Position numbers and translations under genes: made by a program. The notes beneath the pieces were generated by a model. The model worked only from the letters and a program-made list of their open reading frames with translations. It was not told the origin of the DNA and did not search any database. A stretch of 64,000 nucleotides of DNA from a virus. Taxonomy: Duplodnaviria; Heunggongvirae; Uroviricota; Caudoviricetes. Positions 22,514-56,735 of this stretch are shown one piece after another. Location: positions 42,086 through 106,085 of the IMG/VR virus record IMGVR_UViG_3300037421_000080; one strand, given 5' to 3'. The first letter of the stretch is position 1; every line of letters begins with the position of its first letter.

Positions 22514-23371
22514 CTAATAGCACGCCGTGTCTACCACTTCCCCACCAGCCCTCGTGCTGAGAGGGATCGTAGCTGCTGCTCCTCTATATCCTATCCATCG
22601 TACTGACCCATCCACAAAGGCCCAATTCCCGCCATCTCTATGTGGGCTCCAGAAGTGGGTAGAAGCGCAGGGATCCTCGTACTCCCCAGGTCCGTACACA
22701 TTAGGACCGGGACATGGCCCGTAAATGGGCACGTTGCTCTGGGTCGCCATCAGGTTATCGTAATCGCTGAAGGCCCACCAGCCCCAATACAGCTCCGGAG
22801 AAGGCGGTCTCTCGCCGATCATCAGAGTGGTTGAGGCACCGTCCCTCACATCCAGCAGCCTGATCCCCTTCGCCAGACTGGTATCAAATGCTCCGTTCGT
22901 TGGAGTAGCATCGCAGTTCATCGTTGTGCCCACCACACCGCAGTAACTAGTCATTCCAAACGTGCCTGTCTCCGCCCAGCTCGTTCCAGAGAAGCCGGTC
23001 ACCAGATCACGCGGATCGCTGGGGCACAGGAGCAGTGGGATCGCATTGCCGGAGAAGACCATGAAGGATACGTCATCCAGAGTGTAGTCCTGGAGATCCT
23101 TTTGGTCGATGAAGGGCAGGAGCCTCCACATCCAGCCCCGCCTATCGGTGAAGAAGCCTGGGTCGTCCCTTGCTGGCGGAAAGTAGCTGAACTGGTCGTG
23201 ATAGGCGTGAACGGCCATTGCGAGCTGCTTCATGCTGCTTTGGCAGGTGCAGCGGTTGGCTGCTTCCCGTATCTTCTGGACGGCAGGCAGGAGCAGGCCG
23301 ATCAGGATCGCTATGATGGCGATGGAGACGAGAAGCTCGAATATCGTGAAGGCAGGTCGAAGGATAGGCAT
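22514..23371 (-). CDS. DUF1559 / prepilin-type N-terminal methylation-domain protein (Planctomycetes H-X9-DG family)
   Basis: N-term FTIFELLVSIAIIAILIGLLLPAVQKIREAANR = class III signal/pseudopilin helix. C-term H..HRDGGNWAFVDGSVRWI = H-X9-DG motif. Confidence 0.75.
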   Translation of the reverse strand: MPILRPAFTIFELLVSIAIIAILIGLLLPAVQKIREAANRCTCQSSMKQLAMAVHAYHDQFSYFPPARDDPGFFTDRRGWMWRLLPFIDQKDLQDYTLDDVSFMVFSGNAIPLLLCPSDPRDLVTGFSGTSWAETGTFGMTSYCGVVGTTMNCDATPTNGAFDTSLAKGIRLLDVRDGASTTLMIGERPPSPELYWGWWAFSDYDNLMATQSNVPIYGPCPGPNVYGPGEYEDPCASTHFWSPHRDGGNWAFVDGSVRWIGYRGAAATIPLSTRAGGEVVDTACY

Positions 23372-25924: not shown

Positions 25925-25968
25925 GCTAGCCTCCTTCGGCTGTAAAAGGAGAAAGAGAAGTATTCCCA

Positions 25969-26260
25969 TGGACAAAAACTTGTATCAAGGGGGTATCTTA
26001 ACAGGATAACCTTGACAACAAACGGCCCATAGGGAATGTCAAAAAGCGAGGACAAGTTTTTGCAATGGGGTACATTTTAGCAGATAACCCATTACTCCGG
26101 CCCTCACGAATACGCGATCAAATAGTGCGGACAAAAATTGCCGTTGGGTATGCCGGGACTTTCACCCAGCTGTCTTTTTGCAGAAGATAACCAACATGCG
26201 TCCGGCCCACACAAGCTTCGTTGTTTCAAAATAGCACGGACAAAAGTAGATGTCCGGTTT
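25969..26260. repeat. tandem array of ~78-bp imperfect repeat units (3 full + 1 partial) with conserved blocks GGACAA..TTG..GGGTA..GATAACC..CGGCCC
   Basis: Units start about 25972, 26052, 26130 and 26238. Noncoding, immediately 5' of rsr on the minus strand. Confidence 0.5.
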
Positions 26261-36250: not shown

Positions 36251-36321
36251 AGGCCCCCAGAAGGATTTGAACCCTCGCATCCTGGATACAAGCCAGGCGC
36301 TCTACCTCTGAGCTATAGGGG
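36251..36321 (-). tRNA. tRNA-Thr (anticodon UGU)
   Basis: Manual fold. Acceptor GCCCCUA/UGGGGGC 7 bp, D-arm GCUC-AGAGGUA-GAGC, anticodon arm CCUGG-CUUGUAU-CCAGG, variable AUGC, T-arm GAGGG-UUCAAAU-CCUUC, discriminator C. CCA not encoded. Confidence 0.8.
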
Positions 36322-36397
36322 CAAACAGCGGAGGCTAGTAACCAGCCGCCCCCGCTGAGTCCTGTACAGACACAATCTGAACAGAGACCGGTTCGTA

Positions 36398-41777: not shown

Positions 41778-41989
41778 TCGCCAAGATAGTCTTCGTCATA
41801 CAGGTGCATACACTGATTCTGCACTATGCCAGGATGCCCTGGAACATCCCGATACTCAACGAACTTGCTCTTATCAGTGTTGTAGGGGTTGTAGACGATC
41901 CAACCTACTGGATATTGATTACCGTGCCAGCTAATCGGCCTCACTTTCTTCCCTTGCTTGGCGAGAGTCAACGCTTCGATGATGTTCAT
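41759..41989 (-). CDS. DUF2829-like protein (Tad2 anti-Thoeris family candidate)
   Basis: N-terminus MNIIEALTLAKQGKKVRPISWHGNQY matches the DUF2829 M.F.EAL.ALK.GKKV.R..W pattern. 76 aa. Confidence 0.4.
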   Translation of the reverse strand: MNIIEALTLAKQGKKVRPISWHGNQYPVGWIVYNPYNTDKSKFVEYRDVPGHPGIVQNQCMHLYDEDYLGEWEVVE

Positions 41990-42357
41990 TTCTTCTCCTT
42001 GAACAAGTACACCTTGGTCTTGATACCCGCCTTCTTCGCCATCTCGATTGTGGACTTTGTTCCAGGGCTAGTTCCCGACCAGAACGCCACGACGCATCCC
42101 TTCCCCTCCATCATCGCTATCATCTCCGCGTTTCTCACTATCCCAGCTTGCTTGCCCTTCTTCCACTCCGGATGGTGGATTGACTGCATAATCCTTCGCT
42201 CGAAGCACCACTTCTCCGCGAGGTTGTCCGCACCCCTGGCCCCTCCGTGGATCACCAGGATCTTTTTCTTGTCTAGCTTGGAGGTCAAATGGTCCAGCGT
42301 CTTGGCGAGGAAGTCGTAGTCATCGAAGGATCTGGAGCCGCAGACGAGAAGTTTCAT
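41986..42357 (-). CDS. DUF2493 / SLOG-family Rossmann protein
   Basis: MKLLVCGSRSF..ILVIHGGARGADNLAEKW..AGIVRNAEMI..VVAFWSG.SPGT...I..AKKAGI matches DUF2493 throughout. Confidence 0.65.
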   Translation of the reverse strand: MKLLVCGSRSFDDYDFLAKTLDHLTSKLDKKKILVIHGGARGADNLAEKWCFERRIMQSIHHPEWKKGKQAGIVRNAEMIAMMEGKGCVVAFWSGTSPGTKSTIEMAKKAGIKTKVYLFKEKK

Positions 42358-43707
42358 CAGAAGCCAAACCCCCGAGCTAGTTCTGCTTTCTTCAAGCGCC
42401 GATGCCCCATTTCAATGTATTCCTCTGATAAGTCTATCCCGATAAACCTCCTACCGCGAGTGATCGCTACAATGCCTGCGGTTGCCGATCCCGAGAATGG
42501 ATCGCAGATAATCGCTGGCACCGGATCACTTGCGTTGCATTTGCAAGTGGGCTCCCATCCAATTGTCTTCGTGGTCGAAACGTGACGTTCGAGGTCACGA
42601 TTGCCGATTACAGAACCTAGGGTAGTTTTGGTTGAAGTTCCGGACCTTTGGAATCTTGGATCCAATTGTCCTATTTTTCTGTTTTTGAGTATCTCTTTGA
42701 TCTTGCTTTCCCTTCCCGGCCGAGTAGGAGTGCGAGTCTTTTCTAGTATTCGCTTCCACGGGGATCCACAGGCTTTGCAAATTCCTTTTTGGCTAGATCC
42801 CGCCAAAATACAGCGCAACGCAAGCTTTTTGGGGAAGGGAGCGAAGTGGGCCTCCTTCAAGCCGCCTTCATGAGACATGTGCCAGACATCACGACAGAAA
42901 CTTTTGTTTTGGTCGTTTGGATCATGCTTGGTTCCTATTCCTCCGGTAATGAACCCATTCTTTTTCAACTCGACCTTCTTGTTGTTGCCGGCACTTCTCT
43001 CCCAATTCCAGTTGCTCTTTGACCTCTCCATAATCGCCACGTGGTCGAAGTAGTATTTAGACTTCTTGGCGAATAGGAATATGTGTTCGTGGGATTTAGT
43101 ACAGCGATTCGTTACGCTCTCAGGCATGGCCCCGGCTTTGCTCCAGATGATTTCTTGGCGGAGGATCCAACCGTCAGCTTGCATTGCGAAAGCAAATCGC
43201 CAAGGAACGCCTATTAGGTTTCCCGATTGTAAATCACCGAGCAAAGGCAGATGATTGTCGTTATCCTCTCCATACCTTCTACCAACATTTCCACTTTGTT
43301 TGGTTCTTTTTGAAGAAGAATTGTAGCTGTCACCGAGATTCACCCAACATGTCCCAGTGGGATGAAGAACTCTACAAATCTCCCGAAATATCTCGACTAG
43401 CTTTTGTACGAATTCTTCGGGAGTTTCTTCTTGGCCCAGTTCAAGTGGTTTATCCGGATGATCGTCGGGGAGATAACTACGAAGACGCCAGTCAATAAGG
43501 GGGACTAGTAACGACACAATTTACACTTTCATCAGGTAAAGTTTTCAACATGTCGATAACGTCCCCCTGGAGCAACCTACTATGCTTCGTTCGGCGCTCT
43601 TTCATGATATCACCTCCTTTCTGGAGCGTAGAGTGCTTGGTCTTCCTTACGATGCCTTTGGTGCCCACACACCCTCCCGAATTTCGTGCCAAGGGGCTTT
43701 GTTCCAC
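42357..43707 (-). pseudogene. DNA N6-/N4-methyltransferase (DPPY, ParB-MTase type) interrupted by a +1/-1 frame change right after the SPPY motif
   Basis: N-piece 43492..43707 ends ..DESVNCVVTSPPY*. Continuation 42357..43517 in another frame carries ...DPFSGSATAGIVAITRGRRFIGIDLSEEY (motif I region). C5 run and TATTGAC at the junction. Confidence 0.55.
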
Positions 43708-45143
43708 CAGTTACCTTCCGGGAAGACCGGTGAGCAGTCCACCTCCGCCTTCAGAGGCACTATTATCCAGGGCCAAGCCTTCGGGAGATCCACCGTCATC
43801 ACCTGCTTAGTCAGATTGAGGAACTCCTGGGTCTCCTCCTCCGGCACGTCGCCCAGCACGCAGTCGTGCACCTGGGACACGATCAGGGACCTCATCTTCC
43901 TCTTCCGCAGTATCTTCTGGATCCGGATGATGCACCAGAGCAGGCAGTGGAATGCTGGGCCCTGCACAAGGTAGTTGAGTATCTGATTCTTGGTGTATAA
44001 TCCTTCTACCACGAACCCAGTTATCAGTCGGAAGTAGCCGTTCTTGCGGTAGTCTTCCAGTACCAGGTCGCTCTTCTCGCGATAGACGTGGAAGTCTTCC
44101 TCAAACTTCAGCTCCATCTTTCTGAGATGGTACTCGAAAGTTCCAGGCAGAGGCGGCGGGGCATCCTTCTTGGTGCTACATGGTCCTAGCTCGGAGATGC
44201 CCTTCTGGGATAGCCACTCTTTTAGTGCTATCCCCTCGACTTCCATCCCAGCATCGTCCAGGCATGCCCAGACTGCCTTGGCCATCTTCTTGTAGTACGA
44301 ACCGTAGAGCTTGGGAAACACGAATCCATCCTTGCCCTTGTACCTCGTTTTTTTAGTGATCTGACTACCCTTGCACAGGAACATCTCCGCTGCCTTGTCG
44401 CGATGGATATCCGCCTTCGGGTCAGAGGCGTAGTGAATCATCTTGGGGTCCTCCCAAATGCAGGCCGCAAGATTCCACTCATGTGAGCCAAAGTCTATTT
44501 CCGCGAATCGACAGCCAGAGCGGGGGATGAATGCTTGCCTTGTTATCTTTCCCTGATCGCTATCTCGACCGGGGCAATTCATCAAATTGGGAGATTTTGA
44601 CGAGCTCCTATAACTACGAGCTCCACCTTTCTCTTCCTCGTCCCCCCCAGTGAGATTGAAGAAGGCATGGACCAGACTATCCACTGCCTCCCGACGGATG
44701 CTCTTGAGATAGTCGCAGGAGGTCTTGTAATCACCAGCCTTCTCCATCTCACGGAGGAAGGGAATGTTCATCTTGGCGAGAGCTGCCTTGTTCACCTGCG
44801 GCCTGGCGCCCTGCTTCAGCTTCCCCTCGCTGTCGTAGCTCTTCTCGGTGTAGCTCTGGCATTTGTAACCGAGGACGTTGAAGAGCATATGTCCCAGCTG
44901 CACGGGGCTGTCCAGGTTGGCCTTCTGCCCGTACACCTTCTGCCACTTGGTGAAGATCTCGTCTTGCTTGAGCTTGTCCTGGAGACGGCGGATTTTGGAT
45001 TCGGTCCAGGATATAGCACGCTCAAGGTACTCTGTGTCGACACGGATTCCGGCTGCTTCTACCTCCGCTAGCACAATCGAGCCTTCGTGAAAGAGCTGAT
45101 ATGCGGTAGGAGAGGCGACGACTTGTTTCATTGTTTTGGCCAC
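43647..45143 (-). CDS. family A DNA polymerase, polymerase (fingers/palm) domain only
   Basis: Motif A EIDFGSHEWNLAA, motif B TRYKGKDGFVFPKLYGSYY, motif C VHDCVLGDV. Confidence 0.75.
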   Translation of the reverse strand: MAKTMKQVVASPTAYQLFHEGSIVLAEVEAAGIRVDTEYLERAISWTESKIRRLQDKLKQDEIFTKWQKVYGQKANLDSPVQLGHMLFNVLGYKCQSYTEKSYDSEGKLKQGARPQVNKAALAKMNIPFLREMEKAGDYKTSCDYLKSIRREAVDSLVHAFFNLTGGDEEEKGGARSYRSSSKSPNLMNCPGRDSDQGKITRQAFIPRSGCRFAEIDFGSHEWNLAACIWEDPKMIHYASDPKADIHRDKAAEMFLCKGSQITKKTRYKGKDGFVFPKLYGSYYKKMAKAVWACLDDAGMEVEGIALKEWLSQKGISELGPCSTKKDAPPPLPGTFEYHLRKMELKFEEDFHVYREKSDLVLEDYRKNGYFRLITGFVVEGLYTKNQILNYLVQGPAFHCLLWCIIRIQKILRKRKMRSLIVSQVHDCVLGDVPEEETQEFLNLTKQVMTVDLPKAWPWIIVPLKAEVDCSPVFPEGNWWNKAPWHEIREGVWAPKAS

Positions 45144-46835: not shown

Positions 46836-48083
46836 TCATGTTTTCGCTAGGTCTTTCGGGAAAAGGTCAATTCCCATCTTCTTCGCCTGCCTCACCCCCA
46901 CGAACCATTCCAGCAAGGCATCGGTTCCGCAGTACATCAGCATCTGATCCAGCGGCACCTCTCGTATCCGGTTATGCTCATTCGACCCACTAGACTTGAA
47001 GAAGGGCTTCATCCTCCCTTTACCCGCCACATAGCCCAGGTTCACAAATGTCTGGAACTCAAGACTCGCCACGCCCATCCTGTTGTCCAGCACATGGGCT
47101 CCAATCATCCCACACCACACCCAGTTCTTCACCCGCACTCCCTGCCGGAGCAGCCAGCGGATTTCGTGTTTGATGTTGAAGCCGATCTTGGGCACGTCGG
47201 AGCGGATGAAGTCCAGCGTCGCCTCTATCGCCCGCCCCTGCCACGGATAGGCTATCGAGGTCCGCCCGTCGCTTATGGCACAGCACAGGATGAAGGAGTC
47301 AGCTCTATCCGGCTTCAGGGGGCTGTTCTCGATGTCCCACGCCAGCGGCCTGCCGCTCTCCATCATCTCCTGGATCGCGTCTGCTGCCTCGTCGTCCTTG
47401 TAGATCCGCCTGACCTTGGATGGATAGTCGGGCAACGCTTTCCAGGGCTTCTCCATCTTCTTGCAGGCAGCCTCCAGGTGCCTCTCGAACAGGAGCTTCC
47501 TTACCTCATTCTGCTTCTTGCTGCCATAGTCGTCTCGGAGGATGTAGGAGGGATGCCAGGTGGGACACACCCAGGCATTGATCTGCTGACACGGTATCCG
47601 CCAGCCATCCCAGCGGGAAATCATGCCCACGTTGCTGCCCCAGAGCCAGCCCAGGATTGACTTCACTGCCGAGCCGCCCAGGGGGATGATTACGTTGGGC
47701 TTTAGCTCCTGGATGGTTTTTACAACATTGGGCCTGCAAAAACTGATCTCTTTATCAGTGGGGGTGCGGTTCTTGCCTTCGCGTGTCATGGGTCGGCAGA
47801 TGCAACTGTTGTATAGCCAGCAATCTCGGTCCATGTCCACATCGAATTTCTCTAACGTCTCTTTGAGGAGCTGCCCAGACTTGCCAATGAAGGGACGGTT
47901 CTGTTCAGATTCGTTGTACCCAGGGGCTTCGCCACATATAAGTATTCGTTTATACCCCTCCCCAAAGACTTTCATCTTCGGGGACTTGCAGTGACGATAG
48001 AGTCCGCACGAGCCACACTGAGCAACTAGCGGAATTGTGACCCTGCCAGAATCAGCGAGGGGCTGGGGGAAGAAGCCTCTCAT
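46836..48083 (-). CDS. DNA polymerase N-terminal module: UDG family-4-like domain fused to 3'-5' exonuclease domain
   Basis: ILICGEAPGYNESEQNRPFIGKSGQLL (UDG-4 motif) then LAWDIEN (Exo I, DxE). Ends where the pol-domain gene begins. Confidence 0.6.
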   Translation of the reverse strand: MRGFFPQPLADSGRVTIPLVAQCGSCGLYRHCKSPKMKVFGEGYKRILICGEAPGYNESEQNRPFIGKSGQLLKETLEKFDVDMDRDCWLYNSCICRPMTREGKNRTPTDKEISFCRPNVVKTIQELKPNVIIPLGGSAVKSILGWLWGSNVGMISRWDGWRIPCQQINAWVCPTWHPSYILRDDYGSKKQNEVRKLLFERHLEAACKKMEKPWKALPDYPSKVRRIYKDDEAADAIQEMMESGRPLAWDIENSPLKPDRADSFILCCAISDGRTSIAYPWQGRAIEATLDFIRSDVPKIGFNIKHEIRWLLRQGVRVKNWVWCGMIGAHVLDNRMGVASLEFQTFVNLGYVAGKGRMKPFFKSSGSNEHNRIREVPLDQMLMYCGTDALLEWFVGVRQAKKMGIDLFPKDLAKT

Positions 48084-48658: not shown

Positions 48659-48865
48659 TCACTCCCCGATATGCTCGAACTCCATCAGCATCCGCCTGAT
48701 CTCCATCTCGCTCTTCTCAGCTTCCTTGAGCAGCCAGCGGGCGGAGTCGGAAAGGAACTTCACCTCGGCGCAAATAGAGCAGTATCGGTTCTTACAGCGG
48801 AAATCATCGAAGATCAGGCTCTCCAGATAGTCCCTCTCATCATCGGTCATCCGATTCCTCCTCAT
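48659..48865 (-). CDS. small hypothetical protein (CxxC)
   Basis: 68 aa. Confidence 0.35.
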   Translation of the reverse strand: MRRNRMTDDERDYLESLIFDDFRCKNRYCSICAEVKFLSDSARWLLKEAEKSEMEIRRMLMEFEHIGE

Positions 48866-49946
48866 TCTCTTGTTCCGGCTCCTCTGTCTGGGCTCTTTCC
48901 TCTTCCTCAGCCTGCTCCTCAGGTCGTGTCAGCACGGCCACCCAGGCGAACTTCCCCGCTCCGTTCACCTTGATCTTGTCCTGGCTGATCTCGCATTGGG
49001 GATACTCCCGAGCCAGCTTGATCAGCAGGTTCGGAGCAATCACGAAGTCTATCGGAGGACCGGCGTACTTGGCTCGCTTAGGCTCTGTATGGGAGCCTGT
49101 GATCCCAATGCCCTCCACCACTACTCGATCCGGTCGCAGCTTCACCGTGACGTAGTTGAACTCGCCGTTCTCCGAGGAGAAGATATTGGCTCGCTCCGTC
49201 GCATCTACCAGCTTGTTGGGCAGATGGCTCGCAACCCCTTTCATTGAGAACATCTCGGTCAGCTCGGGGAAGTCGTCGATGAACCGTCGGCAGGAGAGCA
49301 TGACACCTTCTGCACTCCGGAAGTGCAGCCAGCCGTCCGTCACGGCCATCTCCACAGGGGCTATCTTATCCAGCTCCGAGATGGACTTGCTCCGCACCAG
49401 CACCGATTCCTCTACGCCCGTCTTCAGGGTCCAGCGACAAGCCTGGTAGTTATCGCAGGTCTCTACCCACTTGGGATGGACGTGGACACAGGTCAGACCT
49501 GCACCGTGCTTCTCGTCGGGCCGGGCGCACTGGCTGACGACTCGGATAGCCTCCGCGAACTCGGGGTGGAGGGGTTTCCACTCCTGCGGCTTGTCCACAG
49601 CCCGGACCAGATCGAGGAGGGAGGTCTCCTGCTCTAGCAATAGGGAAGACTTCTTCCCGCCCTTGCCGTTGAGGATCAGCTTATCCTTCCTCATTTCCAG
49701 CGTCAATTCAGCATCCTCCAGGCGTCGCAGGAGCTCTGATAGGGGACGGGCCGAGACAGCTCCCGTGAACTCCGCTGAGAGCATGCTAGGTCCTCTACAG
49801 GCCGTTTCCTCGTTGCAGGTGTAGACCTTCCCACCTCGGAAGACGTAGCACGAGCTCTGCTGGGTCTTGTCCTTGTTAGTTAGGCCGGGCTGCATCACTT
49901 CGAGATGGCGGAGGAACTCCTCGCGGTTCACTTTCAGAGTGGTCAT
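48840..49946 (-). CDS. dnaN: DnaN-like beta sliding clamp with acidic C-terminal tail
   Basis: N-terminus MTTLKVNREEFLRHLEVMQPGL resembles the DnaN start. ..EMAVTDGWLHFRS corresponds to the ..ATDGHRLA motif. Three-domain length. Confidence 0.55.
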   Translation of the reverse strand: MTTLKVNREEFLRHLEVMQPGLTNKDKTQQSSCYVFRGGKVYTCNEETACRGPSMLSAEFTGAVSARPLSELLRRLEDAELTLEMRKDKLILNGKGGKKSSLLLEQETSLLDLVRAVDKPQEWKPLHPEFAEAIRVVSQCARPDEKHGAGLTCVHVHPKWVETCDNYQACRWTLKTGVEESVLVRSKSISELDKIAPVEMAVTDGWLHFRSAEGVMLSCRRFIDDFPELTEMFSMKGVASHLPNKLVDATERANIFSSENGEFNYVTVKLRPDRVVVEGIGITGSHTEPKRAKYAGPPIDFVIAPNLLIKLAREYPQCEISQDKIKVNGAGKFAWVAVLTRPEEQAEEEERAQTEEPEQENEEESDDR

Positions 49947-50106
49947 CAGCTTTCCTCAAGTCGGTTCTTTCGCTGCGGTTGATCGTAACGCTTCGGGGAG
50001 CCTGGATGCCTATCCGTATCTTGTTGCGGTCGATGTCCGTGATGGTGACAACGATGTTGTCGCCAATGCAGATGGATTCACCAAGTTTGCGAGTTAGGAC
50101 CAGCAT
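49876..50106 (-). CDS. csrA: carbon storage regulator CsrA homolog
   Basis: MLVLTRKLGESICIGDNIVVTITDIDRNKIRIGIQAPRSVTINRSE is near-consensus CsrA. Confidence 0.8.
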   Translation of the reverse strand: MLVLTRKLGESICIGDNIVVTITDIDRNKIRIGIQAPRSVTINRSERTDLRKADDHSESEPRGVPPPSRSDAARPN

Positions 50107-50134: not shown

Positions 50135-50734
50135 CTATCTACTATCGGGGATAGGAGTATACCGCCAGCGGGAGGTCAGCTGCCAGGACCTGTTGTTTTT
50201 CTGGGGAGAGTACTCAATCTTGATAGGCACAGTAGCGAGCAAACCGAGGAGGTTCCCAACCAGAAAGCCCTTCCCTTCCAGGAGGACAAGAGGCTTCTTC
50301 CAGTACTCCCCGGAGCTAAAGCGCCAGACAGCCTCGGGATGGCGCTCCTTGAGTGTAAGAAAGGCTTCGGCCTCCACGAATACTCGCAGATCGCCGCTTC
50401 GGAGGGAGACCAGCTGGTTAAACTCGTCCCCACCTACGAACTTGGCTCGCTCTACCTCGCAGGTGAGTCTTCTGGGGAGAATATCCCCCAAGCTCATTGG
50501 AGTGGCCTTGGCATACTCTGTGTCGGAGATTAGAGCATCCCAGTGCTTCTGTTCTATAGAGCTACGTTCCTTGTTTGACAGGCGAGTCAGGAGCATGTCG
50601 TCAGAGAGGAAGCCTGTCTCCTGGGCTGTCTTGAGCAGGCGACAGCGCATCTCACTGGGCTTGGTGAGAATGGACTTCAACAGTTCCTCGAAGGACTTGG
50701 CCTTCTGGGGAATTGAGTTGGCAACTTTGATCAA
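50135..50734 (-). CDS. hypothetical protein
   Basis: 199 aa. Confidence 0.45.
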   Translation of the reverse strand: MIKVANSIPQKAKSFEELLKSILTKPSEMRCRLLKTAQETGFLSDDMLLTRLSNKERSSIEQKHWDALISDTEYAKATPMSLGDILPRRLTCEVERAKFVGGDEFNQLVSLRSGDLRVFVEAEAFLTLKERHPEAVWRFSSGEYWKKPLVLLEGKGFLVGNLLGLLATVPIKIEYSPQKNNRSWQLTSRWRYTPIPDSR

Positions 50735-50980
50735 TTAGCACACCTGTTCTTGGAGTGTTCCCCAGCACTCACCGCAGAGTAGCCAGCAGTTCGAGCAGCG
50801 GAAGGCATTCATCTCAGGGGAGGAGGCGCCTACTCCAACTTCTGTCCCAGTGTTCGGGCAGATCTGGCTGACAGGAACCGGATTCTGTAGCTGGCGAGTG
50901 AATGGCTTGTGGCAGCGGCAGCAGGTGGTTTGCTCAGCCATTGAGTAGCTCCTTGATCTGACTTCTGATCTCTTTTCCAT
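50735..50980 (-). CDS. small Cys-rich protein
   Basis: CCRCHK..C...CSNCWLLCGEC. Confidence 0.35.
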   Translation of the reverse strand: MEKRSEVRSRSYSMAEQTTCCRCHKPFTRQLQNPVPVSQICPNTGTEVGVGASSPEMNAFRCSNCWLLCGECWGTLQEQVC

Positions 50981-51458
50981 CTATTGGTTTCAATTTGAAT
51001 TTCTGGGCGATTCTCTTGATCTTGCTCTCCCGACCCTTGAGCCAGATCTCATTCTGGTGACTGTTTCGCTTCTTCCTTCTCCTCGCTAGCTCCTCTGGAG
51101 AGCAATCCAGCAGGAACAACTTTAGCTTTACACACTCGATGTTCTGGACTACATCAAGAAAGCTCTGACCGAAGAGACGATCCCCCTCGAACAATACCGT
51201 CCAATCAGGGTTGTGTTTGGCCCAATGATGGAGAACCTTCACTGCATCGGGCTGAACAGACATAGATAGCCGATCCGTCCCAGCGAAGACATTCTCTCCC
51301 CGGTAGTCGCCCAGGACGAACACCTTGGCATCTTCTATGCGGCCGTAGACTAGGGAGCCGATCTTCTCATGCTTGATAGGGCCGAGGAGCTCGATGAGAG
51401 AACGCATCAGCGTGGTCTTGCCGCAGCCAGGATTGCCTCCGATGCCGATCACGATCAT
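50934..51458 (-). CDS. P-loop kinase-like protein (Walker A GGNPGCGKTT; nucleotide/DNA-base kinase candidate)
   Basis: 174 aa, N-terminal P-loop, small kinase-fold size. First gene of the enzyme cassette. Confidence 0.55.
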   Translation of the reverse strand: MIVIGIGGNPGCGKTTLMRSLIELLGPIKHEKIGSLVYGRIEDAKVFVLGDYRGENVFAGTDRLSMSVQPDAVKVLHHWAKHNPDWTVLFEGDRLFGQSFLDVVQNIECVKLKLFLLDCSPEELARRRKKRNSHQNEIWLKGRESKIKRIAQKFKLKPIDGKEIRSQIKELLNG

Positions 51459-52390
51459 CTGGTGAGATCCCCCATCCGTATTTTCTTGGCTCGGGCTAGC
51501 TCCTCAGCAGCAGAGCCGCAGGAAACCATGCCTTGTCTGTAATAACAAACAAGGCTGATCCGTTCAAAGGCTCCCTCTATCCCAATCAGTGGGGTGTTCC
51601 CATGCCACTCATGGACATCCGCCAAGAGCAGACTTCGTGTCCTCATATCCACCGCTACTCGGTACTTCGGAAAGCAGAGGTAACAGCCAGAGTAGTGCCC
51701 TGCCCGGAGAGCCGTCATAACCCCGAAGCCCTCGGTCAGATCACCCTTGTCTTTATGCAAAGCTGTGACCCAATTCTTGTTCACTGTGATTGTGGTGAAG
51801 GCGGTCTTATGAATCACGAAGTCTGGAGAGGTCTGCTTCACTACCTTCAGCTGGGCAGCATAGCGGCCTGGAACGTTCTTCTTGAATGCCTCATCTATTG
51901 CTCGGATCAAGGGCATGGCAGCTTGGAACTTCTCCGGTTGGTATAGATTGAAGGCTGTCAGGCGACAGTAGGGAATGCGAGGATAGCGATCATAGAAGCC
52001 GATGATGCCACTATGGACCGCTTGAGCGTAGTTCGTGTTGGAGACAGTGCCATCTTGTTTCATCGGTCGAAGTCTGGTCCCATCCATGACAGCAGCCTTT
52101 TTGGCTCGATTCCCTTTCCGCTCAGAGACCTTCTCTGGAATGATCCCAGCAGCCATCCCTCTGTTCTCACTGGTGCTTGCTGCTTTCCGTAGACCGGGGA
52201 AGGCAGCCTTGCAAGCAGGAGCAGGGAGAATGTTATGGAGATGGATGAGGAGAACATCACCATTGGGCTTGAGGACTTTCACATCGTCCTCTGCGATGAG
52301 CCGATCGTAGTGAGATTCGTCGAGGAAGGTGCCTGCCAGTTTATCTATTTCCTCATCAGGCAGAGCGTGATTCAACTTTATCGTTTTCAT
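51455..52390 (-). CDS. hypothetical protein with HxD...H...R pattern (possible 2OG-Fe(II)/TET-JBP-like dioxygenase)
   Basis: ALHKDKGD (HxD) then HEWHGNTP and a distal R (RISLVCYYR). Weak, by-eye only. Confidence 0.3.
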   Translation of the reverse strand: MKTIKLNHALPDEEIDKLAGTFLDESHYDRLIAEDDVKVLKPNGDVLLIHLHNILPAPACKAAFPGLRKAASTSENRGMAAGIIPEKVSERKGNRAKKAAVMDGTRLRPMKQDGTVSNTNYAQAVHSGIIGFYDRYPRIPYCRLTAFNLYQPEKFQAAMPLIRAIDEAFKKNVPGRYAAQLKVVKQTSPDFVIHKTAFTTITVNKNWVTALHKDKGDLTEGFGVMTALRAGHYSGCYLCFPKYRVAVDMRTRSLLLADVHEWHGNTPLIGIEGAFERISLVCYYRQGMVSCGSAAEELARAKKIRMGDLTR

Positions 52391-53051
52391 TCTTCAATTC
52401 CCGATATGCTCGCTTCAACACTTTGAACACAGTGTCTGTCAACGTCTTGGTGCCATAGTGCCCACCCAAGTATTTTACTATCTTCTCGAAGGCCCCAATA
52501 TTGTCAGACGAAAGGAACAGCTGGATCATGCGCACATGAGAGGGCTGTAGATCAGGTAATGACTCTGGAGTAAGCTCCCCATCTCCCTCTACATCCAGTT
52601 CCAGATCATCGGGGTTCAGTCCTCCCTCAGCTACCTTGGAGAAGAGCGAGGCTAGTGCCTTGTTCCCCGTTGTAACATCCCTGATGAGGCTAGCGAACTT
52701 CCCCTTGTTCGTTGTAGCCATTGTACCTACAGAGTCATAGGAGGCGAGTAGCTTCTTGGCCTCTTCCTCTGTCACGTCCAGGACTGCGACGTGTACCTTC
52801 TGGTTGGGAGGGTACTCCTCCTGGCGTAGATGGCCGTCGATCAGCATGAATGTTCCGTCAGGCAGCTCGCGAACGATCTGGATACCTGCAATACCGATTT
52901 CGGAGAGGAGGCCACGGAAGGCTTCTCGCTGATCTTCCGGATGTTCTCTCCAGTTCCATGGGCAGGCTCTCAGCTCTCCCGCCTTGACGCGGACCACCTT
53001 CTTGATGCGATCCCGAATCATCATTTTGTGTTCCTTTGGAATGGGAGGCAT
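52356..53051 (-). CDS. ParB/Srx-like nuclease-domain protein
   Basis: FMLIDGHLRQEE ParB N-domain motif. Confidence 0.5.
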   Translation of the reverse strand: MPPIPKEHKMMIRDRIKKVVRVKAGELRACPWNWREHPEDQREAFRGLLSEIGIAGIQIVRELPDGTFMLIDGHLRQEEYPPNQKVHVAVLDVTEEEAKKLLASYDSVGTMATTNKGKFASLIRDVTTGNKALASLFSKVAEGGLNPDDLELDVEGDGELTPESLPDLQPSHVRMIQLFLSSDNIGAFEKIVKYLGGHYGTKTLTDTVFKVLKRAYRELKNENDKVESRSA

Positions 53052-53869
53052 TTACCTAGTTTGTCCGCCAAAGGCCCCCATCCAACTAAAGCATGTTTCA
53101 GCTCTCTAGTATCTATCCCAATGGGGTAGTGGCCGTGTAGATATGATTTCATCTTACAAAGTATGGTCTCTGCTTCCTGTGTTCCACAAGGCCGATCAAA
53201 ACTGGGGGGGGCTAATCTGTGTTGGAATTGTTTATTGAGCCAGCCCACAGTTTCTTTGAGAACCCATTCAGGTTTAACTATTTTTGCTCCCTCTGCTGGC
53301 TCTTTGTAGAAGTTCAGGTCGTCAATGCTGAACTCAATCGAGACACCCATCACTCGCTCTAGCAAATCTCCCATCTTGAACGCAATCCAGGGGCCGTAGA
53401 GAGGCCAGCCTAGTATCCACTTCTTTAGTGTAACAAAATCCCCCGAATCCTCCAAGGACTTTATAGCTAGGCCGGGAATCGGGAACTTCTTTCTCATCCA
53501 ATTGATAGAATGTTGTGAAGCATTTCCTCGGAAGTGCCGTCTCTCTCTTCCCCTCGGCCACTTCTCATCTTGGAACTTCTGGACAGTGTCCCAAAAGTCC
53601 TCAGAATCCGCGATTTTGGAGGCGACACCAGCATGGTAGCACATGCTATAGGCCAATAGCCAGCGACGGAGTAGCTTAGGCCCGAGCTCCGCCTTGTAGA
53701 GGATGACATACACTGGATCCAGGTCTAGTGTATCCAGCAAGGCGTTGCCAAATTCCAATACTGTCATGCGCTTGTTTTCAAAGAACATCAAGGAGCTTCC
53801 TGGCTGCAAATCCGGCAGCAATGGTGCCAAGCTTCCCAGCACCAGTGACAGCCCAGGTTCTGGGTCCAA
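53021..53869 (-). CDS. hypothetical enzyme-like protein in cassette (aGPT-pyrophosphorylase-like role is conjecture)
   Basis: 282 aa, no motif recognised. Confidence 0.45.
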   Translation of the reverse strand: MDPEPGLSLVLGSLAPLLPDLQPGSSLMFFENKRMTVLEFGNALLDTLDLDPVYVILYKAELGPKLLRRWLLAYSMCYHAGVASKIADSEDFWDTVQKFQDEKWPRGRERRHFRGNASQHSINWMRKKFPIPGLAIKSLEDSGDFVTLKKWILGWPLYGPWIAFKMGDLLERVMGVSIEFSIDDLNFYKEPAEGAKIVKPEWVLKETVGWLNKQFQHRLAPPSFDRPCGTQEAETILCKMKSYLHGHYPIGIDTRELKHALVGWGPLADKLGKCLPFQRNTK

Positions 53870-54602
53870 TTGATTCCATCAGGCAGGGATCACTGCCATT
53901 CTTCTTGCAGTAAGGGCGGAGGCCTAGCTTGGTTTTCAACAGCGGTAGGGGAGCAGGCAATGCTTCTTGACAGCGATCAAGGCACTGCTTTGTTCTCACT
54001 TGGGTCCAGTTGGCATGGAGGAGTGCGGAGCCATCCCCTATCCAAATCTCCTGAGGGCCTTGCTGGTGGGCAACGATCTGCTTGTACGGAGCCCAGGGCT
54101 TTATAAATGGTGAAATCTGGCCTGACAGCCTGAATGATACACCCTGCTTGGGCGTAGCTTTGATCGCTTTGGCCAGCTCTCCAATCCAGCATCCAGTGGC
54201 TAGAACCAACAGCCTTCCTTGGTACTCCGAGCCATCGGTGCAATACACAACTGGGTGTTCCTCTGATGTTTTGATCTTGCTTGCCTTGGCCTTTGTCTTG
54301 GGAATAGAAACTACCTTGTCTGTATCTACTCTCCAGACAGTTTCTTGGATCTGCTTGGGCCAGATGGTGAACTTCCTCTCAATCAATCCCCAGACATCAT
54401 CCAGCAGCTCCATTGCTGATTCAGACTCTTCTTTCTGCATGCTTGCAAACCAAGATGGCTTGAGGTGCCCTCCTGAAGGTCCAGTACCTGCCATGGGGCG
54501 ACCGTCGTCTAGCAACAATACCTTGGCTCTACTCTTTCTCAAGGCCAGTGTAATGGTGGAACCAATGATCCCCCCACCAACCACGATAGCATCGTACATC
54601 AT
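53778..54602 (-). CDS. FAD-dependent oxidoreductase (DAO/glycine-oxidase-like, short)
   Basis: N-terminal YDAIVVGGGIIGSTITLAL dinucleotide-binding motif. Confidence 0.65.
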   Translation of the reverse strand: MMYDAIVVGGGIIGSTITLALRKSRAKVLLLDDGRPMAGTGPSGGHLKPSWFASMQKEESESAMELLDDVWGLIERKFTIWPKQIQETVWRVDTDKVVSIPKTKAKASKIKTSEEHPVVYCTDGSEYQGRLLVLATGCWIGELAKAIKATPKQGVSFRLSGQISPFIKPWAPYKQIVAHQQGPQEIWIGDGSALLHANWTQVRTKQCLDRCQEALPAPLPLLKTKLGLRPYCKKNGSDPCLMESIGPRTWAVTGAGKLGTIAAGFAARKLLDVL

Positions 54603-54607
54603 TATTC

Positions 54608-55774
54608 TCAGATGAAGCGGTCGAACTCGCCCACTGATACTATCGGCATCCCAGCCTCCTGCTTCCTCTTGATCTCGATGGCTTCCAGATTTGTATTGTG
54701 CCTCAAGCAGTGGAAGTTGCAGTGTTTGGAAGGATCAAGATACTCCATCACCCGCTGACGCAGTGCACCATCCCAGGCCTCCTTGAAACTCTGGTTGACT
54801 ATACCCCCTACCTTCATCCTCTCCTTGCCACGCCAGTAGGGGCAGACGAATATCCCGGTTGGAGTAACAGTTGTTCTCAGATGGGTTGATGGGCATTTGC
54901 AATAGTCTTTGGATTGAGGCACCTCAACTCCATCCAGGGAGGGTTGTAGGTTGATCGCACGGATCACCTTGAACTTGTCTGTCTCCAGAGAGTCTAGGGA
55001 GGCAACTTCCCGAGCAGCCTGCTCCATCAAGTGCTTTGGGTGCTTCACCAAAGCATGATCCACGCCTTCCCGAAACTGGTAGGAGGGCTTGACCTCAAAG
55101 TAGTCGCACCCGATCTCCCTGGCCAACAGGGCTGCGGCATAGATCTCCCCGATGTTGCTCTCAATATCCCTGCCATCTGCCGGAGTCTGAATCAAGAAGG
55201 AGAAGCCCAGCTTGCCCTTCTTCTTGGCAGCCAGCAACCTCATATTGCTGACAACTTTGTCAAACTTGCTCTTCCCAGTTCCTCCCTTGGTTGGCCTGAG
55301 TACGCTAAACATCCGCTCCGTAGCAGCATCCATCGAGACACGAGTCCACTGTGCATACTCGGAGATAGGCCCCAAATATCTGTCGATGAAGCTGCCATTT
55401 GTTGTGATCCCGATGTGCACATCATTCTTCCCCAGCAGCTCGATAAGCTCTCCGGACTTTCGGTGGGCCAGGGGCTCACCTCCACCAATCAAAATAACTG
55501 CTTTCACTCCGCAGTCAATGAATTCTTGTCCTAGCTTCATCAAGCGTTCATCGGAGAAGCGGTTACCTAGAGCGATCACATCTTCGCTAATGCAACCAGG
55601 GCAGGCCAAATCACAAATCGCTGTTGGGTCTAGCTCCACAACAAACGGTGAATCGTTTCCCTCTTCCCAATCTGTATTGCTGATTCTCTCCAAGACTGGG
55701 AGCTGGTAGAGCTTGTTATTGAGCTTCATGATATCAGACATTTTGCTCTTTCTCCTCCTTTGATTGTCAGCCAC
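54608..55774 (-). CDS. radical SAM enzyme (with C-terminal Cys-rich auxiliary region)
   Basis: CDLACPGC (CxxxCxxC) and VILIGGGEPL glycine-rich SAM motif. C-terminal CKCP...CPYW...CNFHC cysteines. Confidence 0.8.
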   Translation of the reverse strand: MADNQRRRKSKMSDIMKLNNKLYQLPVLERISNTDWEEGNDSPFVVELDPTAICDLACPGCISEDVIALGNRFSDERLMKLGQEFIDCGVKAVILIGGGEPLAHRKSGELIELLGKNDVHIGITTNGSFIDRYLGPISEYAQWTRVSMDAATERMFSVLRPTKGGTGKSKFDKVVSNMRLLAAKKKGKLGFSFLIQTPADGRDIESNIGEIYAAALLAREIGCDYFEVKPSYQFREGVDHALVKHPKHLMEQAAREVASLDSLETDKFKVIRAINLQPSLDGVEVPQSKDYCKCPSTHLRTTVTPTGIFVCPYWRGKERMKVGGIVNQSFKEAWDGALRQRVMEYLDPSKHCNFHCLRHNTNLEAIEIKRKQEAGMPIVSVGEFDRFI

Positions 55775-56661
55775 TCTTCGATATGATCCTTCACCACGTC
55801 AGCTGGGTTGTGGTGGGGGGATGTGTAGAAGAATCCCTCATCTAGCCAAGGATCATAGGGCAGTGGCTTCGGCCAGGCACGGGATTTGAAGTCGAACTCA
55901 CGGAGCAGATCCTTGGCAGACAGACTGCTGCCATCGAAGGAAGCTTCCAAGAACAACTTACACCACAGGACCGAGTTCAGCAGCTCCTCAGGCGAGTCAG
56001 GCATAAAGAAGTGCCTGAACTCCACCGTGTCCGTCTGGAGCATCTGGCGCAGATTCACACAGGGCCGAGGCGTAAGAGCCCAGAGAAGCTTGCCTGTCTT
56101 CTCATGTTTGACCTCCGCCTCGAAGAACTCCTTCGAGGAGGCTGCCTGCATCTGGAGTGCTAGTCTGCTCTTTGGTACCAGTGTATGATGGTCCTTCTTA
56201 CGAACCCGGTGGCACAGCCTCTCTCCCTTGGAGGCGTGGAGCGACGGGACGGGTATTGGATCAATGACGGGAAGTAGTTCAGGCATGACCTGATGGACAA
56301 AAGCCTGGAGTCTCTTTAGCCTCTTCAGATCTTCCCTTAGCCCAGGTACGCGGACGTTGACGTTAAGTCCTGTGCGATAGTTGTGAGTAGCTTCCGGCCA
56401 GCGCTTCTTGATCAAGACCATCTGGTCCGATGGCCCGCTCGGCTCAAGAGATGGCCTTGTTAAGATTTCACCACCAAGATGGTATGACTTCCCCTTTCCA
56501 TCGACAGCCACACCGTTGGAGTTGACACTGGTGTAGTTGCCGTCATCAATTGCCATCCCAAAGGGAAGAGGATCTAGGCGAGGCCAATCGATCATTTCTA
56601 ACTCACTGCCGTAAGTCATGCGTTTCTTTTCGGTGCAGACGTATTTGTGACTGGTGGCCAA
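55726..56661 (-). CDS. amidoligase-like (GS-like carboxylate-amine ligase, Amidoligase_2-like) protein
   Basis: N-terminal YGSELEM (G.E.E) motif and size (~300 aa). Weak, by-eye only. Confidence 0.3.
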   Translation of the reverse strand: MATSHKYVCTEKKRMTYGSELEMIDWPRLDPLPFGMAIDDGNYTSVNSNGVAVDGKGKSYHLGGEILTRPSLEPSGPSDQMVLIKKRWPEATHNYRTGLNVNVRVPGLREDLKRLKRLQAFVHQVMPELLPVIDPIPVPSLHASKGERLCHRVRKKDHHTLVPKSRLALQMQAASSKEFFEAEVKHEKTGKLLWALTPRPCVNLRQMLQTDTVEFRHFFMPDSPEELLNSVLWCKLFLEASFDGSSLSAKDLLREFDFKSRAWPKPLPYDPWLDEGFFYTSPHHNPADVVKDHIEEWLTIKGGERAKCLIS

Positions 56662-56735
56662 GTCTTGTCCCCTTGTGAAGAGAGGGGGCGCTTACTTCGG
56701 CCCCCTCTCTTCTATAAACCACATTCCCCGGGCTG

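Follow-up and report, generated by a model that had tools for sequence, protein, structure and literature searches.

Seven tightly coupled and partly overlapping genes (g1 to g7; Table 1) lie on the minus strand of the window, by which we mean the whole 64 kb stretch of phage DNA analysed here, itself part of a 137 kb contig. All of the open reading frames given in the preliminary description are present, as are the motifs quoted for them: GGNPGCGKTT in g1, HxD..H..R in g2, CDLACPGC, GGGEPL and C-terminal cysteines in g6, and G-x-E-x-E in g7. ATGA-type overlaps of 4 nt join g4 to g3 and g2 to g1, g3 and g2 overlap by 35 nt and g7 and g6 by around 16 nt, a gap of 5 nt separates g6 from g5, and no coding-strand consensus terminator was found between the cluster genes. 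The true starts of g7, g6, g4 and g3 are probably slightly downstream of the longest-ORF starts.

Table 1. Cluster genes and adjoining reading frames in the window.
Feature	Coordinates	Strand	Assignment	Likely start
g7	55726..56661	-	Predicted GS-fold carboxylate-amine ligase, divergent Amidoligase_2 member	ATG 56619 (agrees with database gene call P0001)
g6	54608..55774	-	Radical SAM protein with C-terminal twitch/SPASM-like auxiliary-cluster domain	ATG 55741 (AGGAGG Shine-Dalgarno; agrees with P0241)
g5	53778..54602	-	Homologue of FAD-dependent N-alpha-glycinylthymidine lyase/oxidase (PaMx11 gp47/NGTO type)	
g4	53021..53869	-	Predicted amino acid:DNA transferase (AADT, formerly aGPT-Pplase)	ATG 53788 or 53767
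g3	52356..53051	-	Predicted ParB-like dioxygenase activator	ATG 53024 (agrees with P0121)
g2	51455..52390	-	TET/JBP-family 5-methylpyrimidine dioxygenase, predicted thymine dioxygenase	
g1	50934..51458	-	P-loop kinase (Ploopntkinase3), predicted 5-hydroxymethyluracil DNA kinase	
orf81	50735..50980	-	Small cysteine-rich ORF between g1 and orf199	
orf199	50135..50734	-	Conserved protein travelling with the TET/ParB/kinase module	

Close to the cluster in the window lie genes for a MazG-like protein, a DNA methyltransferase of the N6/N4 type, a polymerase of family A and a clamp loader. This bears out the MazG, methyltransferase and polymerase genes that had been described nearby; the putative clamp gene (48840-49946) has no Pfam match. 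Profile searches, which had been proposed as a check, returned Tet_JBP, ADDT, Ploopntkinase3, DAO and Radical_SAM above threshold, and the accompanying comparison of gene neighbourhoods found the families together in many unrelated contigs. Because they co-occur so repeatedly, their grouping here is not a product of chance. Judged from sequence comparison, five of the seven genes (g1-g5) match characterised enzymes or enzyme types. The flanking orf199 gave no match in Pfam, PHROG or PDB searches, but may be an eighth member: its homologues (31-42% identity) occur in four loci (L014, L015, L016 and L154), all with TET, kinase and ADDT genes, and in L015 the homologue sits between the kinase and ParB. 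None was found in thymidylate-synthase-type loci. For orf81 there was neither a Pfam match nor a homologue among the loci compared.

Oxidation and phosphorylation of thymine

The earlier and rather hesitant reading of g2 as an oxygenase is upheld by a Pfam Tet_JBP match (2.5e-22), alongside a match to phrog_24024 (3e-80). Its motif residues are H212-x-D214, H260/H263 and R277. C282 is followed by an extension of 29 residues. A protein 48% identical to g2, gp18 of Pelagibacter phage HTVC112P, likewise adjoins a ParB-like gene. The ParB-like member of the cluster had been thought to fall outside described pathways, but ParB beside TET is the arrangement described for ParB-dependent T-dioxygenases (PMC13229309). 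In the model of g3, a nucleotide-binding domain of the ParB type is joined through an acidic, disordered linker to a dimerisation domain at the C-terminus, and there is no HTH DNA-binding domain; the ParBs that activate 5mYOX enzymes have the same architecture (nucleotide-binding domain, linker, C-terminal domain, no HTH; PMC13229309). In the 5mYOX clade C1 of that study (O'Toole et al., PNAS 2026), as here, Tet_JBP proteins stand beside ParB homologues lacking a DNA-binding domain and this thymine-oxidising subclass has P-loop kinases and AADTs as linked genes and no C5-methyltransferase nearby, although our comparison with 5mYOX176/ParB176 is by description only. The study deals with the oxidation step alone, and the partners it names are GATases, kinases and AADTs rather than flavin lyases, radical SAM enzymes or amidoligases. 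ParB, TET, kinase3 and ADDT genes also co-occur in the four loci that carry orf199 homologues. We predict that g2 is a TET/JBP thymine dioxygenase and that g3, by analogy with the ParB-dependent class, is its activator; g3 would switch on g2, which would hydroxylate the methyl group of selected thymines in DNA to give 5-hydroxymethyluracil (5hmU).

The same enzyme family raises the question of whether cytosine might be the modified base, with g2 oxidising 5mC to 5hmC for conversion to a phosphorylated form and then an amino-acid adduct. Some phage TET enzymes do oxidise 5mC (PMC8256090), and characterised phage T-dioxygenases are described as also doing so in vitro (PMC13229309). However, no C5-cytosine methyltransferase was found in the 64 kb window, where the one DNA methyltransferase belongs to the N6/N4 class and the motif IV (PCQ) signature is absent from every frame, and the ParB-associated clade is thymine-oxidising. 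In addition, g4 and g5 retain residues which in gp46 and gp47 of Pseudomonas phage PaMx11 grip a flipped thymine derivative. Modification of cytosine is thus very improbable. The window likewise yielded no thymidylate synthase homologue or motif and no dUMP hydroxymethylase; as it covers 64 kb of the 137 kb contig, a hydroxymethylase or C5-methyltransferase gene may lie further along the genome.

The kinase g1 exceeds the gathering score of Pfam Ploopntkinase3 (6e-11) and matches phrog_800 (2e-15), which is labelled 'terminase small subunit', a misannotation also found on the RefSeq record of M6 gp54, a proven kinase. Similarity to the proven 5-HMUDKs, M6 gp54 and PaMx11 gp49, is confined to the P-loop region, and g1 homologues (35-48% identity) accompany ParB, TET and ADDT in the four loci already mentioned. 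Family and context together lead us to predict that g1 is a 5-hydroxymethyluracil DNA kinase, which would phosphorylate the hydroxymethyl group to give 5-phosphomethyl-dU.

Amino-acid transfer and release of the amine

The 282-amino-acid protein previously left unrecognised, g4, can be assigned as a probable amino acid:DNA transferase. It exceeds the gathering score of Pfam ADDT (7.9e-9), matches PDB entries 8z2m ('Glycinyltransferase', PaMx11 gp46; 4e-39) and 25qc (4e-37), and is 33% identical both to PaMx11 gp46, along the whole protein, and to gp51 of Pseudomonas phage M6. Nine of the 11 DNA-binding and pocket residues of gp46 are identical in g4 (the equivalents of D24, R94, H95, R97, L142, W146, K150, E243 and C247), the other two being conservative changes. 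Sequence places it nearest to the glycine-transferring clade, and glycine is most likely its amino acid, given the identity of around 33% and the presence of a glycine-specific lyase homologue. That homologue is g5, a glycine-oxidase-like protein also once placed outside known pathways. It matches Pfam DAO (8e-19) and PDB 8z2o/8z79 ('Flavin-dependent lyase', 6e-45), aligns with the whole of PaMx11 gp47 at 35% identity (E 7e-51) and retains seven of the eight residues listed in PMC11472151 as contacting DNA or the flipped base, conserved at the equivalents of gp47 W51, F52, Y180, Q182, R210, Y244 and K268.

The biochemistry of gp46 and gp47 is established (PMC8989533, PMC11472151). PaMx11 makes 5-acetylaminomethyl-dU using a dUMP hydroxymethylase, the kinase gp49, the glycinyltransferase gp46, the flavin lyase gp47 and the acetyltransferase gp48. 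By homology to gp46, with its pocket residues conserved, g4 would swap the phosphate for an amino acid, most likely glycine, to give N-alpha-glycinylthymidine, and g5, like gp47, would then oxidise the N-C-alpha bond, releasing glyoxylate and leaving 5-aminomethyl-dU. The two phages would share a kinase and the unmasking of a primary amine which is then capped. They differ in that 5hmU would be made on DNA by TET and ParB here and is made from dUMP before replication in PaMx11, in that the kinases belong to different Pfam families, and in that a GS-fold ligase and a radical SAM enzyme are found here instead of the acetyltransferase; we therefore expect a cap other than acetyl. In M6, 5-aminoethyl-dU is produced by gp51, a radical SAM isomerase (gp53), a PLP decarboxylase (gp52) and the kinase gp54; the transferase is the shared element, and the window has no homologue of gp52 or gp53.

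Ligase, radical SAM enzyme and the final adduct

The motif of g7 runs G18-x-E20-x-E22 and its fold is that of a glutamine-synthetase-type carboxylate-amine ligase, g7 itself falling below every Pfam threshold. Ligases with this fold activate a carboxylate. Across 30 metagenome loci of at least 8 kb which carry a ligase of this family, a kinase is present in 27, an AADT in 25, a flavin lyase in 16 and an M6-type PLP enzyme in four, with AADT-FAD-Amid the commonest order; TET occurs in four, a g6-type radical SAM gene in one and a detectable ParB in none. The complete PaMx11-type route lies directly beside the ligase in L011 and L005, as does the complete M6-type route in the sister contigs L006, L010 and L008 (PLP enzyme 44% and isomerase 61% identical to M6 gp52 and gp53). 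Both routes finish at a base bearing only a primary amine. The closer relatives of g7 (at least 38% identity) always have beside them the genes for unmasking an amine, either the flavin lyase or the isomerase together with the decarboxylase, and in the PaMx11-like phage Simon the ligase occupies the position of the gp48 acetyltransferase (AADT-FAD-Amid-...-kinase-gp50-TS). We propose that g7, standing in for that acetyltransferase, would use ATP to couple a carboxylic acid to the unmasked amine, yielding N-acyl-5-aminomethyluracil. Its action is placed after the flavin lyase because the lyase would strip off the product of a ligase acting earlier.

Alternatively, the pathway could run unchanged as far as the amino-acid adduct (N-alpha-glycinyl-T or another aminoacyl-T), whose free carboxylate g7 could activate and amidate with an amine, for instance ammonia, a polyamine or a further amino acid. 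This amide would be the substrate of the flavin and radical SAM enzymes, and the product would be a peptidyl or amide adduct, not an N-acyl-aminomethyluracil. This would suit a fold whose members activate carboxylates, and seven of the 25 ligase loci with an AADT, among them each of the four further loci that carry TET, gave no hit to a flavin lyase or a PLP enzyme even in HMM searches, so that an unmasked amine is not the substrate of the ligase family in every case. There is also a precedent in CmoY, an ATP-dependent ligase which makes an amide on 5-carboxymethylcytosine in phage S-B43 DNA (PMC12783734). As proposed for g7, CmoY forms its amide bond on a modified base within DNA, but it is asparagine-synthetase-like and AMP-forming, and its base bears the carboxylate with glycine as the amine, whereas here the base most likely bears the amine. 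Set against amidation are the genomic context of the closer relatives, the exchange seen in Simon and the retention by g5 of the residues of a lyase whose reaction takes the carboxymethyl portion off glycinyl-T, so that the lyase would delete a glycinyl-T amide. We consider amidation unlikely and retain acylation of the unmasked amine as the preferred reading.

The radical SAM protein g6 (Pfam Radical_SAM 7e-13; SPASM match weak) carries C54/C58/C61 within CDLACPGC and further cysteines at C292, C294, C311, C352 and C356. No NCBIfam model came near its cutoff, and g6 shows no similarity to M6 gp53, a spore-photoproduct-lyase-like isomerase. Many metagenomic and bacterial proteins are 59-75% identical to g6. 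The gene adjoins the ligase in the window and likewise in L005, L006/7, L010 and L011 (68-74% identity); in L008/9 a short-chain dehydrogenase takes its place. An aldehyde dehydrogenase, mostly adjacent to the radical SAM gene, is present in 26 of 54 bacterial loci examined, an ATP-grasp protein in 19 and an AMP-forming ligase in seven, and DegT aminotransferases also occur. These operons, which combine DegT, GT2, radical SAM, aldehyde dehydrogenase and ATP-grasp (or AMP-ligase) genes and for which our literature search found no describing paper, resemble the phage pair in having a radical SAM protein (37-58% identical to g6) with a carboxylate-amine ligase partner. They differ in the ligase fold and in their acceptor, likely an amino sugar and not DNA; of their genes, those for the aldehyde dehydrogenase, aminotransferase and glycosyltransferase are missing from the phage. 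Because its bacterial relatives occupy sugar and glycan operons, the substrate of g6 may be a small molecule and not DNA. With low confidence, we suggest that it would carry out a redox-type tailoring (e.g. dehydrogenation or decarboxylation) of the acyl group or its free precursor.

It could also be argued that g6 and g7 take no part in DNA modification and belong to an independent module, devoted to a small molecule or a glycan, beside a five-gene, PaMx11-like pathway ending at 5-aminomethyl-dU; an unusual acyl group made for, or attached to, a host or phage sugar would be an example. The g6 family is indeed common in bacterial nucleotide-sugar and glycan operons without DNA-modification genes. 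Yet the ligase family is nearly always immediately adjacent to the kinase and AADT genes it accompanies, five independent contigs, which differ in gene order, have the g7-g6 pair embedded among genes of the thymidine pathway, and sugar-pathway genes are absent from the window and related phage loci. A separate module is thus distinctly improbable.

The cluster very probably rewrites the phage's own thymines after replication to an aminomethyl form, on which another two enzymes then build. The intermediates would run from T through 5hmU, 5-phosphomethyl-dU and N-alpha-glycinyl-T to 5-aminomethyl-dU, and we lean towards the full six-step order of TET/ParB, kinase, AADT, flavin lyase, then ligase and radical SAM enzyme. 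The general idea of the preliminary description, a thymidine-type hypermodification with a TET/JBP start, a hydroxymethylated base, a kinase, amino-acid transfer and tailoring, was correct. Its claim of an undescribed chemistry holds for the final one or two steps, and the final adduct is therefore undescribed; the earlier steps match described pathways. Lee et al. (NAR 2021, PMC8989533) had already reported metavirome clusters combining radical SAM, PLP, flavin oxidoreductase, amidoligase and TET_JBP genes, some with TET_JBP replacing the dUMP hydroxymethylase, and left the amidoligase function unassigned. The window draws on the same combinatorially arranged families, and this is therefore no new class of pathway, although no other examined locus has the exact permutation of TET, ParB, AADT, flavin lyase, amidoligase and g6-type radical SAM. 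The modified DNA would presumably resist host nucleases.

Assignment of the cassette and its likely starting base

On the strength of its protein families, we assign the seven-gene cassette as a thymidine hypermodification cluster that would act post-replicatively. All seven minus-strand ORFs marked out in the preliminary description are present, and each of the motifs it quoted was seen in the translations. The genes overlap by 4 to 35 nt or are separated by gaps of a few bases; in a consensus scan, promoter-like sites within the cassette were not above shuffled sequence, terminator-like sites were fewer than in shuffled sequence, and none of the latter lay between cassette genes on the coding strand. 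Four of the genes may be slightly shorter than the listed ORFs, to judge from ribosome-binding sites and the gene calls of databases. An 11-bp G+C-rich inverted repeat (AGAGAGGGGGC ... GCCCCCTCTCT) without a T-tract occupies the short gap between g7 and the upstream gene for a 689-aa acidic protein, and may be a terminator or regulatory hairpin at the start of the cassette.

Positions of the cassette genes and of other features discussed in the text
Feature	Sequence	Position (strand)	Family or domain match	Suggested start
Inverted repeat	window	56680-56712 (-)		
g7, amidoligase-like	window	55726-56661 (-)		56619
g6, radical SAM enzyme	window	54608-55774 (-)	radical SAM	55741
g5, flavin lyase homologue	window	53778-54602 (-)	short DAO-type flavoprotein	
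g4, amino acid:DNA transferase	window	53021-53869 (-)	ADDT	53788 or 53767
g3, ParB-like	window	52356-53051 (-)		53024
g2, TET/JBP dioxygenase	window	51455-52390 (-)	Tet_JBP (2.5e-22)	
g1, kinase	window	50934-51458 (-)	Ploopntkinase3	
orf199	window	50135-50734 (-)		
CsrA homologue	window	49876-50106 (-)	CsrA (1.4e-21)	
Family A DNA polymerase, seemingly split	window	46836-48083 (-) and 43647-45143 (-)		
YspA/SLOG-family protein and N6/N4 DNA methyltransferase	window	41986-42357 (-) and 42357-43517 (-)		
tRNA-Thr (anticodon TGT)	window	36252-36322 (-)		
Ro60 homologue	window	24275-25975 (-)	TROVE and Ro60 vWA (4e-48 and 6e-62)	
DUF1559/SBP_bac_10 protein	window	22514-23371 (-)	DUF1559/SBP_bac_10	
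HTVC112P gp17-gp19	L001	6973-9195		
LMWPc after amidoligase	L003	9857-10378	LMWPc	
NVP2275O_469	L004	6866-7978		
Methyltransferase adjoining ADDT	L014	9826-10560	Methyltransf_21	

Four of the seven proteins fall directly into Pfam families of DNA base modification and a fifth is assigned only generically. The products of g3 and g7 gave zero matches in single-sequence Pfam, NCBIfam and PHROG searches and were identified solely through sets of homologues and structure models. None of 50,697 phage records matched the cassette in a nucleotide search. Clusters of this kind have already been published, including a group in which TET_JBP replaces the hydroxymethylase (Lee et al., NAR 2021; PMC8989533). 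What is new here is the specific permutation of genes, seen in no other locus examined, and the comparative argument on the roles of the ligase and the radical SAM enzyme. We tentatively propose, at a probability a little short of even, that the phage DNA bears an undescribed hypermodified thymine, an N-acylated 5-aminomethyluracil, in which the acyl group would be put on directly on DNA by a glutamine-synthetase-fold ligase and tailored or provided by a radical SAM enzyme drawn from bacterial operons for amino-sugar decoration, the route starting at ordinary thymine in the polymer.

The dioxygenase g2 scores 79 bits against Tet_JBP (cutoff 34.9), and its iron ligands and 2-oxoglutarate arginine were found (H212xD214, H260/H263 and R277), with 29 residues beyond C282. 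It adjoins g3, which has an N-terminal nucleotide-binding domain and a C-terminal dimerisation domain and lacks a DNA-binding domain. [quoted passage not shown] Members of this class are expected to oxidise T to 5hmU on dsDNA only with the cognate ParB, a reaction predicted here for g2 and g3. In the window, a Pfam scan of the larger ORFs found a single DNA methyltransferase, of N6/N4 type, a six-frame search of these 64 kb of the 137 kb contig found no PCQ motif, the C5-methyltransferase signature, and no thymidylate-synthase homologue was found, tblastn with the one from L006, a sister phage contig, giving zero matches. Because neither this signature nor a thymidylate-synthase homologue was found in the window, the likely starting base is thymine already in the polymer. 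The kinase g1, a candidate 5-hydroxymethyluracil DNA kinase (5-HMUDK; M6 gp54 / ViI gp67 type), matches phrog_800, whose label is the same as the RefSeq annotation of M6 gp54; in BLASTP with M6 gp54 and PaMx11 gp49, both kinases, the P-loop alone aligns (E 0.001). Sister loci of the thymidylate-synthase type differ in having HMUDK_HMUD1 kinases in place of the Ploopntkinase3 type.

In the cultured Pelagibacter phage HTVC112P (gp17-gp19), the closest TET homologue (48%) is annotated as a 'DnaJ/SNF2 repair protein' and lies between a ParB-like gene and a methyltransferase gene of the FkbM family (Methyltransf_21), kinase and AADT being absent; a Methyltransf_21 gene also adjoins ADDT in locus L014. 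These contexts suggest another fate of 5hmU, possibly O-methylation.

The 282-aa product of g4, which the preliminary description left unrecognised, is an ADDT, the amino acid:DNA transferase family formerly called aGPT-Pplase. It scores 36 bits against a Pfam cutoff of 26.2, is 33% identical both to the PaMx11 gp46 glycinyltransferase and to M6 gp51, matches PDB 8z2m at 4e-39, and has nine of 11 gp46 DNA-binding/kinking or base-pocket residues identical, with conservative changes of F173 to Y and D175 to E. The g5 product shares 35% identity, along its whole length, with the flavin lyase PaMx11 gp47, matches PDB 8z2o over residues 2-271 (6e-45) and keeps seven of eight gp47 contact residues (W51, F52, Y180, Q182, R210, Y244 and K268), K202 being replaced by L. 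In PaMx11, gp46 and gp47 take 5-phosphomethyl-dU through N-alpha-glycinylthymidine to 5-aminomethyl-dU, which an acetyltransferase then caps (PMC8989533). The predicted route up to 5-aminomethyl-dU is based on homology to these solved and assayed enzymes, and the amino acid transferred by g4 would be glycine, judging only from its closest characterised relatives and the co-encoded homologue of a glycinyl-T lyase. The window differs from a complete PaMx11-type pathway in lacking both the GNAT N-acetyltransferase (gp48) and a dUMP hydroxymethylase: tblastn with gp48 and with M6 gp58 found no match in it, and searches of the window for a dUMP hydroxymethylase, C5-methyltransferase, PLP decarboxylase, acetyltransferase, aldehyde dehydrogenase or ATP-grasp protein found none.

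Placement of the ligase

The g7 product has no Pfam match to Amidoligase_2 (PF12224) at E up to 1, and a PDB profile search returned chance matches only. Amidoligase_2 is matched by 27 of 39 g7 homologues (33-71% identity; best E 7e-9), and the only structures resembling the confident g7 model (pLDDT 93.5) are carboxylate-amine ligases with a glutamine synthetase / glutamate-cysteine ligase / PafA fold; the model shows the catalytic fold and conserved acidic metal ligands of glutamine synthetase and glutamate-cysteine ligase. Amidoligase genes were flagged in 2021 as partners of thymidine hypermodification with 'function not yet known' (PMC8989533), and no paper characterising an amidoligase in DNA hypermodification was found in the literature searched.

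In both the PaMx11 and the M6 routes, a primary amine is the only reactive handle on the end base (aminomethyl in the former, aminoethyl in the latter). Phage Simon, which is PaMx11-like, has the ligase in the slot of the gp48 acetyltransferase. Across 30 ligase-family loci from metagenomes, each at least 8 kb long, the kinase is found in 27, AADT in 25, the flavin lyase in 16 and the M6-type PLP enzyme in four, and the dominant gene order is AADT-FAD-Amid (Amid being the g7-type ligase). We place the ligase at the amine because of the Simon slot, this co-occurrence and gene order, and the consideration that the lyase would remove the product of an earlier-acting ligase. The g7 enzyme would then follow g5 and join a carboxylic acid to 5-aminomethyl-dU. 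Seven loci with ligase and AADT have no detectable lyase or PLP enzyme, and the ligase family may therefore act on other handles too.

A low-molecular-weight phosphatase (LMWPc) gene lies directly after the amidoligase in 21 of the 30 loci (metagenome loci L078-L140; L003), and the database protein P0113 is an amidoligase fused to LMWPc; in the window's lineage, a radical SAM enzyme or an SDR takes the LMWPc position. Vibrio phage 2.275.O encodes a distant g7 homologue (NVP2275O_469; 24% identity) that adjoins the 7-deazaguanine genes QueF, QueC, Gat-QueC and FolE. It was considered as DpdM or DpdN of the 7-deazaguanine pathway and rejected, since the published account assigns those to the DUF3109 and PurN-like families. 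Because preQ1, the product there, likewise carries an aminomethyl group, the aminomethyl groups capped by this ligase family may belong to more than one type of modified base.

The radical SAM enzyme

The g6 product has the cluster motif CX3CX2C (C54/C58/C61) and the SAM motif GGGEPL. Four C-terminal cysteines (C294, C311, C352 and C356), conserved across 23 family members, are consistent with one auxiliary cluster; the SPASM Pfam match is weak (E 0.036) and none of the curated models comes close. An M6-type glycinyl-T isomerase was considered for g6 and rejected: BLASTP with M6 gp53, which is spore-photoproduct-lyase-like, gave no match, and true gp53 homologues (59-62%) coexist as separate genes with g6 homologues in sister contigs (L006, L008 and L010).

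A scan of IMG/VR with g6 alone gave no match and a profile scan gave two contigs only, both already among the compared loci. The family as a whole (1,319 matches) is well conserved and reaches bacterial chromosomes at 37-58% identity. A recurrent bacterial operon there combines a DegT aminotransferase, a GT2 glycosyltransferase, the radical SAM enzyme, an aldehyde dehydrogenase and an ATP-grasp or AMP-forming (AMP-binding) ligase (L020-L044, L018 and L019, from Lachnospiraceae, Sulfuricurvum, Smithella, Pelagibacteraceae and others), and a Streptomyces and Kitasatospora variant comprises radical SAM, FMO, MFS and GT2 genes. A literature search for the radical SAM / aldehyde dehydrogenase / ATP-grasp operon found no relevant description.

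The g6-type enzyme partners carboxylate-amine ligases of three different folds, and in L008/9 a short-chain dehydrogenase stands beside the phage ligase in its place. Twitch-domain radical SAM dehydrogenases and decarboxylases (BtrN, BlsE) have NAD-dependent functional equivalents. This partnering and replacement weakly suggest that g6 serves in redox tailoring of the acyl group or its precursor.

Two modules and their implications

The gene-neighbourhood comparison shows an initiation module (ParB, TET, kinase3 and ADDT), which recurs in every g3-homologue context examined (L014, L015, L016 and L154). The closest overall analogue of the window is L016 (ParB 51%, TET 60%, AADT 50%, flavin lyase 50%, kinase 48%), where the ligase is only distant (24%) and the radical SAM gene is absent. 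The g7-g6 pair has its nearest relatives in a group of phage contigs of 110-125 kb (ligase 57-59%, radical SAM 68-74%) with 5hmU via a thymidylate-synthase homologue and one of two routes each. The PaMx11-type route is seen in L011, whose order Amid-rSAM-FAD-AADT is that of the window, and in L005 (FAD-Amid-rSAM-AADT); the full M6-type route is seen in L006/7, L010 and L008/9, with a PLP enzyme 43-46% and an isomerase 59-62% identical to M6 gp52 and gp53. Because the initiation module and the g7-g6 pair have different closest relatives, the window resembles a recombination product of two modules in circulation.

Homologues of orf199 (199 aa) occur in all other ParB + TET + kinase3 + ADDT loci examined (L014, L015 (between kinase and ParB), L016 and L154). 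It matched no family in full-library HMMER, PDB profile or PHROG searches, and may be an eighth cluster member that has escaped recognition, or may instead go with the clamp-like gene beside it; a phage-encoded CsrA homologue sits between the two.

Elsewhere in the window, a UDG-superfamily (uracil-DNA-glycosylase) domain fused to a 3'-5' exonuclease lies about 1.7 kb from the polymerase domain of the seemingly split family A enzyme, with a MazG-like gene between; in related contigs UDG, exonuclease and polymerase form a single protein. The YspA/SLOG-family protein abuts the N6/N4 DNA methyltransferase, immediately upstream, and a single tRNA-Thr gene lies within the replication-gene block. 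The phage also encodes a Ro60 homologue; the window yielded no Y-RNA-like partner for it when scanned with Rfam at gathering thresholds. The sister contig L011 has a weak TROVE gene too. The DUF1559/SBP_bac_10 family is typical of Planctomycetota and assemblies of Thermoguttaceae or Pirellulales supplied several g3 homologues; a planctomycete host is possible.

Hypermodified bases shield phage DNA from restriction and CRISPR nucleases and are a source of enzymes for DNA labelling and sequencing chemistry. A modification made wholly after replication from normal thymine would leave nucleotide metabolism unrewired, and the cassette could in principle be moved to other genomes. The comparative evidence gives the ligase a concrete, testable placement, the capping of the amine unmasked by a PaMx11-type or M6-type route. 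If the proposal is true, the Amidoligase_2 family would have its first DNA substrate, and in g6 a second radical SAM enzyme, of different mechanism, would be known from DNA hypermodification. The phage enzyme is also tied to a widespread bacterial operon, and an answer for either system would probably bring an annotation for the other. The cluster is of interest mainly as a well-defined target for a new DNA base and for the first substrate of this ligase family.
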